This document shows positions 23,896 to 45,965 of a stretch of 64,000 bases of DNA, piece after piece. Location of the stretch: IMG/VR virus record IMGVR_UViG_3300046170_000391. One strand, written 5' to 3'. The notes under the pieces were generated by a model. That model searched no databases. It was given only the letters and a program-made list of their open reading frames with translations, and had not been told where the DNA came from. Numbering within the stretch: the first letter of the stretch is position 1; each line of letters opens with the position of its first letter. Position numbers and translations under genes: made by a program. The stretch comes from a virus.

Positions 23896-25221
23896 TTAAA
23901 AGTACATAATTGCAATACGTTTGGACACCCAAAAGATTGTATCATGCAATAAAAATCCAAATATCAATGGACTAGTATCAAGTTTACGCATTAATAGCCC
24001 AAACGGAACTAGCATTGCGAAAATTAAAAGATGATCTTCACCGTTCATGGTGACATTTCCTAACCACCATATCATAAAAATTAACGATGAGACAATAAAT
24101 AAGTAAAGTTTCTCTACACTAAATCCATCTAAAAAACGAAAGATGTTGATGTATTTACCTGCAACAAGTAGTCCAATAGTGGAACTTAACATGAAACAGA
24201 TAACTACTAGTGAAAAGGTATCTTGAAACCATGCAACGGTAAGAGAAACTCCTTTTGACTCTAAAATGTTATAAATTAACGCCTCAGCCGCAGTAATCGG
24301 TATACCTAAAAACAGTAAAGGAACTAACTGAGTAAAAGCTCCTGCATTATTAGAACCCTCACTAGCAATTAAACACTTAACATCCCCTTTACGATATGCT
24401 TTACCTCTAAAAATCTTCTCACCATAGTAAGCAAACAAGGTACTAGCAGAGTAAGCCAATCCTGGCACAAATCCTCCGATACACCCAATAAACGCACTCC
24501 TGAGTAAAGTTAAGTAATGATTTTTGATTTCAAGTAGTGAATGCCAGTACCCTTTAATAGTTAGCAAAGGCCAAGAAATAGCCGAACTATCTTTTAGATA
24601 GCTGTTAATAAAGTTAGGAATTATGAATAGTGCTACAATAACACATAAAGTAGGAATACCTCCATATAACGGAGTCCAGTTAAGAGTTAAATTGTGAATA
24701 CCGAGAGACTCATCATAACCAATCCATCCTAAAAATAATCCTAATAAAAACAGTATAGTGTTAATCCAAATACGATTAGGCGAAAAAAGCACAATGGAGA
24801 TGAAAGCTATTGCAAAAATAACTGCTTGTACAGTGCTATTCCACATTTCATAGAATAAAAATAGAATAGGAATACAGGCTAATACAAACATCACCGCAAA
24901 AGCACTACAAAACCAACTAGCAATAGCACTAAACATAATTGCTTTGTCGCCTTCTCCACGCCTAAACATTGTGTGACCTTCAATCACACTTGGTACAGCA
25001 GTAGCATATCCTGGAAGTCCTAGTAAGATAGCAGAAGTGTTATTAAAGTATTGGTCAATACTTATCAACACCACATAAAATAACACTACATTTACAGGGT
25101 CAAGACTCATTAAAAAAGGAAAAGCAGTTACTAAAACAACTAAACCACCAACTCCTGGCATAAGTCCCCCAAATATGCCGGAGAGGGTAGCTAATATAAA
25201 TACTACAACAGTCTCGATCAA
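23896..25221 (-). CDS. tctA: Tripartite tricarboxylate transporter large permease TctA
   Basis: G..GG.MPG.G, AILLGLPG, GCIGGFVPG, EGSNNA, LGIP motifs; multi-TM. Confidence 0.85.
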   Translation of the reverse strand: MIETVVVFILATLSGIFGGLMPGVGGLVVLVTAFPFLMSLDPVNVVLFYVVLISIDQYFNNTSAILLGLPGYATAVPSVIEGHTMFRRGEGDKAIMFSAIASWFCSAFAVMFVLACIPILFLFYEMWNSTVQAVIFAIAFISIVLFSPNRIWINTILFLLGLFLGWIGYDESLGIHNLTLNWTPLYGGIPTLCVIVALFIIPNFINSYLKDSSAISWPLLTIKGYWHSLLEIKNHYLTLLRSAFIGCIGGFVPGLAYSASTLFAYYGEKIFRGKAYRKGDVKCLIASEGSNNAGAFTQLVPLLFLGIPITAAEALIYNILESKGVSLTVAWFQDTFSLVVICFMLSSTIGLLVAGKYINIFRFLDGFSVEKLYLFIVSSLIFMIWWLGNVTMNGEDHLLIFAMLVPFGLLMRKLDTSPLIFGFLLHDTIFWVSKRIAIMYF

Positions 25222-29207: not shown

Positions 29208-29931
29208 GTTTCAAGAAGTCGAATACGATCCTTTTGATTCATGTAGTATTCTAGAGCGCACCACAAAGTTTGAATCTCGTCACAGATAGCAGCATCTTTT
29301 TCTGGAAGCAGAGATAACTGAATTAAATCATCTGCGATAACACGTTTAACAACCTCTAATTGTTGCTCTGAAGTAAGTGCAATAGTTGCCATTAGTGTAC
29401 TGTGCCTCGTGTATACATTTGGTGTAGATCATGTTGTATTTGATACCATTCGCTTACGGCGGCTTCAAACCCGATAGTACCCTCACCAAACTCAAGCTGT
29501 GCTTTAATGATGAAATCTGGTTCTGCGACATTAAAGTGGTCACACGCAAAAATTTCACCTTCTAATACTGCTTCTTTGATTTTACCCATTATACTCTATC
29601 TCCCATCATTGCGTCATTAATTTCAGCAGATATCATATACTCATGCTCATCTTCCTCCATCTCAGAGGCAGCATCATACGCAAATTTATAAACATAACGC
29701 TTGATAGCAAGTTGTCCAAGAGCAGACTCGATAGCATCCCAATCATAAGCATATTCTGCTCTTTTGAGACGATCTTCTAGTTCAGATACTTGATATGCAA
29801 AAGTTTCCACAACAGGAAAAAGTTGAGTTGAAGTGGTGCAGTTGCGAATAATTGTAATGTCGTGGTTCATTGTCATGCCTATCTCCTCATTTTCTGTAAA
29901 CAGTATATCAAATATAGGACTAAAACGCAAG

Positions 29932-30612
29932 AAGGGAGTGAACTACGTTTGTCCACTCCCTCCACGAGCATTTAGATCGTGATGATCAATCAATAGGATC
30001 AACTCCGTGCCAGACAAGGTGTAAGGTGCGCTCCCCACATTGGCTTGTTGACTCTAGCTTGAGATTTTGCTTTCTCCTTGGTTGGATGCACGTTATTGTG
30101 CAATTCGTGTATAAAGTCGGAACTAAACACACTGACCTGTATGGAAGGCTAAACCCTTGGTTGTCTGGTTAGGCCAACCTAGAAGCCTCTTAGACACCGA
30201 CTACTCCGAATAGTCAGTACCCGTTTGATGATGATCTCTCATTTTAATGTCTTAACCCAAAGGTTCTACACCTCTATGAGAGTGATGACAGCCACCAGCC
30301 TCGCCTGTCACCGTGAAGGCACGATACACCGTGTGATTCCTTCCCCGACTCTCAGTTAGTTTATCCACACTGAGACACTGTGGCGGGGGTAGCTAACCCC
30401 CTTTACAGAGCAGAGCCTGGTTATATACCCAGGATGCAAGTTGGCGCTTGTAGTATCGAATTAACTGCATACCAACCGATGAGTTAAACTAAATACCCGA
30501 CCCTACCGAAGTAGTTTGTTACATAGTGCTACGCGCGCACAGCCTGGTATTTGTTTTTTCTACTCAGCCTTGCAACGCTTTACAGCCAACGGCACTGAGT
30601 AGATAGTAGTAG
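29932..30612 (-). ncRNA. Candidate large structured ncRNA A (about 680 nt)
   Basis: No ORF of 60 aa or more; GC-richer than flanks; many nested helices; ends in AGGGAGTG..CACTCCCT hairpin. Confidence 0.65.
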
Positions 30613-30615
30613 GTC

Positions 30616-30933
30616 TTAGTGCGCTACTACACCCATCAAACGAGTTAGTGCGTCTTTCGTTGCACCCTCGAACCCAGTAACATCAAAGCCTTGAGCTTCA
30701 ATATCACGCAGGATTTCTTTCTTAGAAGGGCCATCCTGCTTTGCGGCGGACTTTTTAGGAGATGCCACATATGCTCCCTCGCGAACGAGCTTGGAACGGA
30801 CAGAACGAACAGTTTTGTCCATTGATTCAGCAATCTGGTCAAGACCATCGTTGCCGAGTTCATTATACATTTCGATCATAGTATTGACCATTTCCGCAGT
30901 ATAATTTGCAGATTTTAGAGTAGCTTCAGCCAT
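30616..30933 (-). CDS. T5 A2-like DNA-binding protein, copy 3
   Basis: NYTAEM...RSVRSKLVREGAY...KKEIL...FEGATK; own TTGCTT..TATTAT promoter at about 31005-31036. Confidence 0.7.
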   Translation of the reverse strand: MAEATLKSANYTAEMVNTMIEMYNELGNDGLDQIAESMDKTVRSVRSKLVREGAYVASPKKSAAKQDGPSKKEILRDIEAQGFDVTGFEGATKDALTRLMGVVAH

Positions 30934-31044
30934 AATTCACCTCGATTAGCTCTGAAACGTGATGGCAATAGTCAGAGGCATTGCCGTTCCCTCATTCAAT
31001 AAATACATAATATCAAATAAATAACCTATAAGCAATTCAAAAAT

Positions 31045-31198
31045 CATGGGGAAGACTGTGTTCTCTACTAGCGAAGGTTGTTTTGAATGGTGCCTAGTGC
31101 TTAACACATCGTGGGCTTCTCTTGCGTTCGATACTGACAGGACTTCCCCTGAGACTTTGCGGAGGGTTCTTTAGAGTCGGTTATCCCTTACCTCAACG
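31045..31198 (-). ncRNA. Candidate small structured RNA B (about 150 nt)
   Basis: Own promoter at about 31207-31236; no RBS/ORF; GGGGAAG/CTTCCCC, TGTGTT/AACACA, ACTAG/CTAGT helices. Confidence 0.5.
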
Positions 31199-31254
31199 AC
31201 ATATAGATAATACGAAATATTTAAGTAAAAAGCAAACAGAATGTTTAGTTAGAT

Positions 31255-31742
31255 TCCAACACAGCCCCCACACCCGCCTGTTGAATGAGCCTTCTTCAAA
31301 CGAGTGAAAGAGATTGACTTTGACTACCCCCGTTGGTAGAAAAAGAACTCAATACCCAAAGCAAGACCCTTACCGTTTCGGGGAGCTACAACACGTCGCT
31401 GGTAGGCGACAGGCGACGGGAGCTCACCCAGAAAAAGGTGGGGATGTTTTTTACATCGTTTCCCCTTGCCCCTCAGAGCCGATGGCACGGTTGCGCGTTG
31501 TGCAATGCGCCTACTCTGGATATATTTACAAGCATCGAGTAGGTTTGGCTTGGGAGTCGCAAGTGGTGCCTCACTTACCTTATCGCGGTAAACGGCTTCT
31601 TTCACCCATGAGCGTGGGACAGATAAGTTACAGGCTGAGACGCTTTCCGTGACTCCGTTGGATCATTAACCGAATTTAACTTGCGCAGTGCTTTCCACAA
31701 GGGTAGCAGTACCTGCTCGGAGGATGATGCCTCAACTCATCT
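31255..31742 (-). ncRNA. Candidate large structured ncRNA C (about 490 nt)
   Basis: Own promoter (TTGCTC..TATTAT, about 31752-31780); GC-rich; near-continuous hairpins. Confidence 0.65.
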
Positions 31743-32065
31743 TGTATATACATAATATCGAAAAATTTAGAAAAGAGCAACAGCAAAGTGAAATTATTAA
31801 GAGTTGCTCGACTTATTTATTTATGGTTTTTAATCATCTCTTGGTAGCGCAAGACTACCTTCTCGTCTCTCAGGTGACAACCTGAAAAAAGCCATATAAA
31901 ACGTTCTTTCCAGTTTGCTTTGTGTGATATACCATTAGGTTCAATCACTTTAAGAGTAAAAAACTTGCTTATCATAGATTTGCTCCTTTTTCGTTCAAGA
32001 GATTAAATATATCTGAAATCAGAGCAGAAAGCAATTTTTAATTAAAAATGATTACAGTTCAATAA

Positions 32066-45734: not shown

Positions 45735-45808
45735 TGGCAGAGGATCAAGGAATTGAACCCTGTCTTGCTGGGTTGGAGCCAGCTGTGCTACCGTAACACT
45801 TATCCTCT
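45735..45808 (-). tRNA. tRNA-Trp(CCA)
   Basis: Cloverleaf AGAGGAT..ATCCTCT, loop CTCCAAC, GTTCAA, encoded CCA. Confidence 0.92.
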
Positions 45809-45812
45809 ATTT

Positions 45813-45887
45813 TGGAGCGGGTAGACGGAATCGAACCGACATCCTCAGCTTGGAAGGCTGTGATAATTGCCATTATACTATACCCGC
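45813..45887 (-). tRNA. tRNA-Gly(TCC)
   Basis: GCGGGTA..TACCCGC, loop CTTCCAA, GTTCGA, CCA. Confidence 0.93.
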
Positions 45888-45888
45888 A

Positions 45889-45965
45889 TGGACGCCCTTG
45901 AGAGACTCGAACTCCCGACCTTTTGGTTCGTAGCCAAATGCTCTAATCCACTGAGCTAAAGAGCG
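45889..45965 (-). tRNA. tRNA-Arg(ACG)
   Basis: TAGCTCAGTGGATTAGAGC D arm, loop CTACGAA, GTTCGA, CCA. Confidence 0.92.

Follow-up and report, generated by a model that had tools for sequence, protein, structure and literature searches.

A probable new family of modular structured RNA in a distant T5-like phage and its uncultivated marine relatives

The window analysed here is a 64,000-nucleotide stretch of viral DNA (IMG/VR record IMGVR_UViG_3300046170_000391), and our subject is RNA A, a 680-base gene-free stretch of its minus strand, bounded by the stop codon of a 105-amino-acid (aa) open reading frame (ORF) and by the next gene, whose ATG lies at 29876. RNA A is very probably a functional, modular structured RNA of a new family. 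Frames inside it start with GTG or TTG only and reach at most 52 aa, and none is kept across relatives; as read from the sequence, RNA A contains no credible ORF and no coding signal. Proteins encoded in the window include a prohead protease, an HNH endonuclease and a large terminase, which shares 40% identity with its counterparts in Pectobacterium phage My1, Providencia phage PSTCR5 and similar phages. We take those phages to be T5-like. Neither RNA A nor the surrounding 24 kilobases (kb) showed DNA similarity to any of 50,697 isolate phage genomes. The window therefore derives from an uncultivated, distant T5-like phage. The features of the locus are as follows (MFE, minimum free energy; z, MFE z-score).

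31007..31035, minus: promoter-like TTGCTT-17-TATTAT, 5' of the A2-like ORF, read by eye from the sequence.
30616..30933, minus: A2-like ORF, 105 aa, directly 5' of RNA A.
29932-30612, minus: RNA A.
30559..30603, minus: hairpin 1, stem UCUACUCAG.../...CUGAGUAGA with inner loop GCCGUUGGCUGUAAAGC (MFE and RNAalifold; z -2.5).
30486..30556, minus: domain 2, stem AAAUACC.../...GGGUAUUU around two small hairpins.
30439..30477, minus: hairpin 3, local GGUUGGU/GCCAACY, which takes the 5' strand of a long-range helix proposed earlier (see below).
30410..30437, minus: hairpin 4, UGCA-CCUGG...CCAGG-CUCUGC.
30379..30408, minus: hairpin 5, GGGGGU/ACCCCC with CUGU/ACAG flanks (MFE and RNAalifold).
30282..30378, minus: core motif, about 95 nucleotides (nt), from pattern and covariance-model searches.
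30350-30375, minus: P1 of the core.
30344-30349, minus: linker GUCGGG of the core.
30315-30343, minus: P2 of the core.
30284-30312, minus: P3 of the core, with loop GGCGAGGCUGGUGGC at 30291-30305.
30234..30281, minus: optional inserted hairpin CUCUCAU.../...AUGAGAG (z -2.8).
29966..30233, minus: 3' module, about 270 nt, covarying hairpins and a short closing helix AGCA/UGCU round a multi-branch part.
29931..29963, minus: intrinsic terminator, a 13-base-pair stem followed by UUGCGUUUUA (terminator scan; z -4.6).
29902..29930, minus: promoter-like TTGCGT-17-TATACT of the next gene, read from the sequence.

The name A2-like is adapted from an earlier, sequence-only reading of the window, which had labelled the upstream gene A2; it is kept here as a name. 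The protein matches phrog_1725, 'DNA binding protein' (E-value 2e-7), which is its sole annotation, and searches of Pfam, PDB and the isolate phages of INPHARED gave no match. It contains the basic stretch RSVRSKLVREG. The TTGCTT-17-TATTAT site, absent from the output of a generic sigma-70 scan, is likely the start of the transcript carrying RNA A; neither reading of the sequence nor the sigma-70 scan gave a promoter-like site between the A2-like stop codon and RNA A. At the other end, the terminator stem has seven G-C pairs and a U-rich tract directly after it, as in intrinsic (Rho-independent) terminators, and it covaries in 23 homologues, with UUUCUU or CUUCUU following it in all of them. 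It corresponds to the terminal helix AGGGAGTG/CACTCCCT of the sequence-only reading, which undergoes compensatory change in relatives and abuts the TTGCGT-17-TATACT promoter as had been claimed. An identical terminator-promoter junction was found in two other loci (L299 and L324; L numbers denote the loci compared).

The minus strand of RNA A folds far better than chance, with an MFE of -230.7 kcal/mol where dinucleotide shuffles give -197.5 ± 5.7 (z -5.8; none of 20 shuffles as good), while the plus strand reaches a z-score of -2.5. By module, the terminator (-4.6) and the 3' module (-3.9) have the lowest z-scores, and the core and the 5' part reach -2.0 each. G.U pairs are frequent in the conserved helices, where the opposite strand would have C.A mismatches (the P3 position adjoining the loop is U.G in 39 of 70 core sequences), so the strand of RNA function is the minus strand. 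The sequence-only reading had staked its case on folding better than shuffles and on helices conserved in related phages; the first holds on the minus strand, and the helices are indeed conserved, with covariation. The helices that it named are all present where it had placed them. Its view of RNA A as a functional, multi-domain, structured RNA of the minus strand, and not an ordinary untranslated region (UTR), stands on the fold and the covariation. Its picture of one large ribozyme- or scaffold-like fold with nested long-range helices does not: the closing helix fails comparison, the parts occur separately, and no Rfam family matches.

The core is the best conserved of the sequence islands that variable hairpins separate in distant homologues (L005/L150 and L029). 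It is built, in order, of UG, P1, GUCGGG, P2, 0-3 nt and P3, which closes the loop GGCGAGGYUGGUGGC, and pattern and covariance-model searches find a single copy within the window. A search pattern derived from it matched 15 viral and 105 metagenomic loci, among which 99 core loci with a G+C fraction below 0.5 were judged genuine; these are mostly marine or estuarine. P1, P2 and P3 are present in all 70 distinct full cores. In the covariance-model alignment, 97.7% of the P1 and P3 pair cells are standard, compared with 74.5% for shuffles and 24-51% for slid partners, and double changes occur at 13 of the 16 pairs. P2 starts directly after GUCGGG and is formed by at least 12 unrelated stem sequences among the 70 cores. 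The helices CTCAGT/ACTGAG and TGACAG/CTGTCA of the sequence-only reading are P1 and P3 respectively, each with compensatory change in relatives. Its long-range GGAAGG/CCTTCC is broken in most relatives, the conserved helix being the local P2 pairing GAAGG/CCTTC, and its AGTCGG/CCGACT holds in 10 close relatives but lacks a partner in other lineages that keep GUCGGG invariant. That helix fails to explain the constant GUCGGG, since most family members are without the partner.

Finds independent of the full core pattern are limited to L029, whose core reads GUGUCGGG, and to second, divergent copies in L325 (L325:5014-5102, minus) and L290 (L290:11708-11796, minus). The second copies score about 30 bits, lie about 430 nt upstream of the main copy, and carry the loop UCGAGGUUGGUGC and a different linker. 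Together, these finds suggest that the truly constant part of the core loop may be CGAGGYUGGUG. A two-tier G-quadruplex in the loop (GG-N3-GG-N2-GG-N1-GG) was also considered, and is weakened by the loss of two of the four GG runs in the second copies of L325 and L290.

The loop pattern alone gave mostly chance matches in viral contigs, and among the matches listed only L063 was real. In genome contigs, the pattern GTCGGGG...loop gave at least 120 matches; those listed were all high-GC coding sequence, none with a P3 stem, and the covariance model run on five of those high-GC genomes found nothing. No real core was found in 800 sampled alpha- and gammaproteobacterial genomes, a sample that is not proof of absence. 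A 107-kb contig carries the core but no related terminase, indicating that the core motif is not confined to one phage lineage.

IMG/VR contigs with the whole of RNA A at 87-95% identity were found by way of the flanking proteins, and in these close relatives eight pairs are changed on both sides (RNAalifold). The helix that the sequence-only reading had proposed to close the fold, GGTTGG-T-ATGCA with TGCATCCAACC (as RNA, GGUUGG-U-AUGCA with UGCAUCCAACC), is neither conserved nor covarying, and RNA A does not behave as a single closed fold. Across 10 close relatives the helix shows no compensatory change; the outer pair of its GGUUGG/CCAACC part is G.A in 6 of the 10, and its AUGCA/UGCAU part has A.A in 2 of the 10. 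The competing, mutually exclusive local hairpins GGUUGGU/GCCAACY (hairpin 3) and UGCAC/GUGCA are paired in all 10, the former with one G.U to G-C change and the latter with one G-C to A-U double change. The 3' partner segment of the closure is absent altogether from the L150 and L029 types. The parts of RNA A also occur in other combinations. L063 has the core and then its own terminator at once, L314 is a mosaic with P1 of one lineage and P2 and P3 of another, and a natural deletion in L389 (L389:1500-1560) joins P1 straight to the 3' module, with linker, P2 and P3 missing.

On these comparisons, RNA A reads as a chain of exchangeable, independently folding modules and not as one globular fold. 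Its order is 5' hairpins, core, optional hairpin, 3' module and terminator, and the modules are very probably under purifying selection. A single ribozyme or scaffold of about 680 nt held by long-range closing helices is, by comparison, very improbable. Long-range pairs do appear in the single-sequence MFE structure of the window, AGUCGG/CCGACU is kept in the 10 closest relatives, and the AGCA/UGCU closing helix of the 3' module covaries; however, the main closing helix is broken in relatives where the rival local hairpins covary, the modules are found apart and in other orders, and no intron, RNase P, GOLLD, ROOL, HEARO, OLE or small-ribozyme model matches.

Among the 5' hairpins, the stem of hairpin 1, predicted earlier as TCTACTCAG/CTGAGTAGA, undergoes compensatory change and is replaced as a whole by GCAGUCCAGC/GCUGGACUGC in L314 and by GCUGUCCAG/CUGGACAGC in L358, and its loop motif is seen again in L029, L389, L151 and L159. 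Domain 2 has two pairs with double changes, A-U to G-C and U-A to G-C (RNAalifold), which lend support to the predicted AAATACC/GGTATTT helix. In hairpin 4, the predicted CCTGG/CCAGG stem covaries, becoming CCUAG/CUAGG in L005 and CCUGU/ACAGG in L029, and the flanks UGCA and GGCUCUGC are conserved as far as L063 and L155. Hairpin 5 differs between lineages; the predicted GGGGGT/ACCCCC helix is present, with a single G.U change as its sole variation. In the shortest loci (L296, L310, L317, L385, L387 and L313), the stretch from the A2-like stop codon to the core holds, 30-70 nt 5' of the latter, a hairpin whose stems covary and whose 12-nt loop, (A/C)(C/U)UGCAUUCUCC, is constant. The sequence CUUGCAUCC at about 30430-30438 in the window may be related to that loop.

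Downstream of the core, the 48-nt inserted hairpin is either there or missing as a unit. L002, L003 and L004 lack it, L307, L292 and L375 have it, and in L356, L323 and L344 it carries a U-A to C-G change, while L290 and L333 have a different hairpin in the same slot; the CTCTCAT/ATGAGAG helix named earlier is thus this optional element, upheld by its compensatory change. The 3' module lies directly 3' of the core in 33 of the 99 loci. Pairing holds in 99.0% of the pair cells of its 23 distinct sequences, compared with 89.1% for shuffles and 40-51% for slid partners, and 26 of 52 pairs have double changes; the earlier GACTA/TAGTC helix also has compensatory change in relatives. Three readings of this module were rejected. 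The GACUA-UUCGGAG-UAGUC hairpin is not taken for a transfer RNA (tRNA) minihelix, its UUCGGAG loop not being conserved in homologues. The module is not a transfer-messenger RNA (tmRNA), having no T-arm, CCA or tag. Kissing of the core loop with the UACCAGAGU loop of the 3' module shows no covariation, L366 and L321 altering that loop with the core unchanged.

RNA A matches nothing in Rfam 15 at gathering thresholds, and a search of 29700-30900 at E-values up to 10 gave three junk matches (E 0.3-8). GOLLD, ROOL, HEARO, OLE, group I and II introns, RNase P and the small self-cleaving ribozymes of Rfam 15 gave no match to RNA A, resemblances to HDV-like, glutamine-riboswitch and other known motifs found no Rfam support, and no Rfam 15 match to core or 3' module appeared in 35 related loci. 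There is no tRNA cloverleaf in 29932-30612 (ARAGORN and RF00005). The tmRNA models RF00023, RF01849, RF01850 and RF04321 do not match, and RNA A lacks a T-arm and a CCA acceptor end. It has no conserved tag frame either; the frame from GCA AAA UCU meets UGA in the L150 type, and real tags occur only in L160 and L350. The manA model (RF01745, gathering score 55.2 bits) has no match at that threshold in the window, nor at E-values up to 10 in 29700-30900. The core thus appears to represent an RNA family that has no Rfam 15 counterpart and is apparently undescribed, unless it is one of the unnamed DNAVirus_X candidates of a 2023 catalogue (PMC10690425).

Several known systems nevertheless offer partial likenesses. 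GOLLD and ROOL are large, ornate RNAs of phages and prophages, often found beside tRNA genes. RNA A resembles them in being several hundred nt long, phage-borne and free of ORFs, with many covarying helices and a tRNA-gene neighbourhood among its relatives; it differs in matching neither model, in being a variable chain of modules where they have one conserved architecture, and in its unconserved closing helix. In T-box RNAs the UGGN bulge, and in RNase P the GGU of L15, pair with the 3' NCCA of tRNA. By analogy, UGGUGGC in the core loop might form pairs with 3' ends reading ACCA or GCCA; the GAGGU of that loop might match the anti-Shine-Dalgarno sequence. Covariation of the core loop with a tRNA end was not found, and the other defining features of T-box RNAs and RNase P are absent.

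The manA motif (RF01745; Weinberg et al. 2010, PMC2864571), a structured RNA with several stems known from marine phages and metagenomes, was put forward as a candidate riboswitch of 5' UTRs. RNA A is likewise a marine-phage RNA with several stems, and its core shares genomic islands with manA, but the consensus and architecture of manA are unlike those of core and 3' module, and manA here sits among tRNA-like RNAs. In phage Melnitz, a glutamine riboswitch is reported to precede ssrA, the gene of a two-piece tmRNA (PMC9004378). The core similarly adjoins permuted tmRNA in L160 and L350, as a structured element beside a marine-phage tmRNA; RNA A itself is no tmRNA, and the core matches neither the glnA nor the Downstream-peptide RNA model of Rfam. 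The 2023 IMG/VR catalogue lists 8,495 candidate structured RNAs with motifs of up to 151 nt (PMC10690425). It draws on the same data source and likewise describes short, covarying motifs of uncultivated phages that are not in Rfam, although its main text makes no link to tRNA or tmRNA genes. The core may already be among its unnamed candidates.

In other marine phages, the core takes the same slots as, or adjoins, tRNA, permuted tmRNA, tRNA-like elements and manA, always on the same strand. All tRNAs near the core are on its strand, and in at least eight loci a tRNA, mostly tRNA-Trp, starts 16-23 nt after the core loop, which leaves no room for a promoter. In L160, a genuine permuted tmRNA comes right after the core (L160:1001-1311; 126 and 133 bits in Rfam; tag ANDEVFALAA). 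In L350, the core starts at the end of a permuted alpha-type tmRNA (L350:440-1037, minus; 101 and 104 bits in Rfam; tag ANDNHQPEMALAA) and has a U-run and a promoter downstream of it. In the L350 tmRNA gene, the acceptor and coding pieces are set apart by about 290 nt of intervening sequence. The neighbouring phage tRNA and tmRNA genes encode CCA. A query combining core and tmRNA from L160, run against isolate phages, matched only the tRNA-like domains of tmRNAs in unrelated phages.

manA RNA was found just 5' of the core in L155 (61.3 bits), L321 (60.8), L297 (55.2) and L150 (54.9), at L155:2831-3000, L321:1385-1554, L297:1296-1471 and L150:10267-10442. It occurs there in islands of tRNA and non-coding RNA, directly after a tRNA in L321, and not in a 5' UTR, which is at odds with its usual 'cis-regulatory' label. 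Degenerate tRNA-like elements stand just 5' of the core only in L155 (L155:3134-3205) and L321 (L321:1709-1780), scoring 32-35 bits with RF00005 while ARAGORN is silent.

Such neighbours might suggest that the region holds decayed tRNA or tmRNA remnants, or a DNA-level element (a cruciform, an origin or an injection-stop region), with no RNA function at all. The region is the slot where other phages have tRNA or tmRNA genes, and the weak tRNA-like matches beside the core in L155 and L321 fit decay. Nevertheless, dozens of compensatory double changes and the invariant loops point to selection on RNA pairing, the G.U pairs and the strand asymmetry of the z-scores speak against a DNA hairpin, and RNA A is without a T-arm, CCA end or conserved tag frame. 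We regard this explanation as the least credible of those considered, since it appears largely refuted by the covariation.

The position of the core could also be read as that of a cis-acting read-through or attenuation device. The core, perhaps all of RNA A, would then be a riboswitch-like aptamer or a processive antitermination signal, like the HK022 put RNA, a nut site or the glutamine riboswitch of phage tmRNA, gating polymerase from the A2-like gene into the stable-RNA genes downstream. The core does usually have the A2-like ORF on one side and stable RNA genes on the other. In 25 of 73 distinct loci P3 leads into a U-run, and still a tRNA begins just 16-23 nt further on, too near for a promoter, so that read-through is required; the core's highly conserved single-stranded segments are aptamer-like, and a riboswitch before a phage two-piece tmRNA provides precedent (PMC9004378). 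We still consider this rather unlikely for RNA A. The window and 32 other loci have no U-run at P3 and continue into the 3' module, L063 and L350 have only a terminator or promoter after the core, an alternative pairing that could act as anti-terminator was not seen, and the known riboswitch models give no match. Because the core can stand first (L160), in the middle or last (L063, L350) in a transcription unit, a trans-acting RNA is favoured over one that serves as a leader only.

A third possibility centres on the A2-like protein. Of the 73 distinct core loci, 51 carry a homologue of the A2-like ORF upstream on the core's strand, sometimes only 71-126 nt away, and eight more are cut by contig ends. 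This small basic protein might bind the core or the modules of its own transcript, for autoregulation or in a ribonucleoprotein. The linkage persists despite reshuffled contexts, and the RSVRSKLVREG stretch would suit RNA binding, but shared ancestry of related phages may account for the former, and the sole annotation of the protein is DNA binding. Among loci whose upstream sequence is intact, at least 14 have no such ORF (L153, L155, L160 and L350 among them), and other A2-like paralogue loci have no core. On balance, we find such a protein platform improbable.

Our preferred explanation is that RNA A is the untranslated, structured 3' part, about 680 nt long, of an early transcript in an uncultivated marine T5-like phage. 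The transcript would run from the TTGCTT-17-TATTAT promoter through the A2-like ORF and RNA A to the intrinsic terminator, and RNA A would belong to the phage's set of stable, translation-related RNAs, made early in infection. Where tRNA-like neighbours exist, tRNA-processing enzymes would cut the RNA out. The released RNA would act in trans, through its exposed G-rich loop and GUCGGG, on host translation, tRNA handling or RNA surveillance. We hold this translation-related mechanism as a tentative proposal, which may well prove wrong, while a modular structured RNA of a new family is a much firmer conclusion; the two blended into one explanation come out slightly on the probable side. Several observations weigh against it. 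We infer the co-transcription, stability and processing of RNA A, all three. No tRNA-like element flanks the core of the window, so release by RNase P cannot be assumed there. The linkage to the A2-like ORF (51 of 73) and the U-run after P3 (25 loci) suit a cis-acting element or a protein partner at least equally well. The search pattern itself accounts for part of the apparent invariance of GAGUCGGG and of the 15-nt loop. Finally, no site complementary to the core was found in the window, and no target or partner emerged.

A more specific form of the trans-acting explanation takes the core to be a new class of RNA deployed with phage tRNAs and tmRNA, whether for capture of tRNA or tmRNA 3' ends (NCCA) or of the anti-Shine-Dalgarno region of the 30S subunit, as a new aptamer or ribozyme for stable-RNA maturation, or as a decoy for host defences that target RNA. 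This idea is doubtful at present. If it held in any of these forms, RNA A and its 3' module together would make up a new large phage RNA, one that reprograms the host's translation at an early stage of infection. Structured non-coding RNAs of large size are rare, and the known phage-borne examples (GOLLD, ROOL, manA), few in number, are still without a function. The core family brings 70 distinct sequences with strong covariation and unusually informative neighbours (tRNA, permuted tmRNA, manA and one small early protein), and offers handles in RNase P processing, in read-through control and in possible binding partners (tRNA ends, ribosomes, the A2-like protein). The same results set manA RNA among stable RNAs instead of in 5' UTRs.

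The RNA islands of uncultivated marine T5-like phages are exchangeable, and at least two further conserved, apparently non-coding blocks adjoin RNA A. The block that we call RNA B (31045-31200, minus) lies between two TTGCTT-type promoters and has 70-100% identity in about 50 fetched loci. It is kept also in loci without the A2-like gene (L155, L158 and L354), and its spread is comparable to that of the core. RNA C (31250-31745, minus), which may be RNA or coding, has 95-99% identity in close relatives, against 87-95% for RNA A, and its positions 64-114 are seen again in many distant loci. The MFE z-score of RNA C is nevertheless only -0.76, and it is overlapped by ORFs of 93 and 112 aa on the two strands.

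Elsewhere in the window, three tRNA genes (Trp-CCA, Gly-TCC and Arg-ACG) are clustered at 45735-45965 (minus) and account for its only Rfam and ARAGORN matches. An ORF at 23896-25221 (minus) encodes the whole of a TctA tricarboxylate-transporter domain (Pfam, E 4e-58), which is unusual cargo in a phage. Among the IMG/VR contigs L006-L022, many of those with A2-like paralogues stop a few hundred bases 3' of that gene, as might be expected if assembly had broken off at repeats, for example terminal ones.

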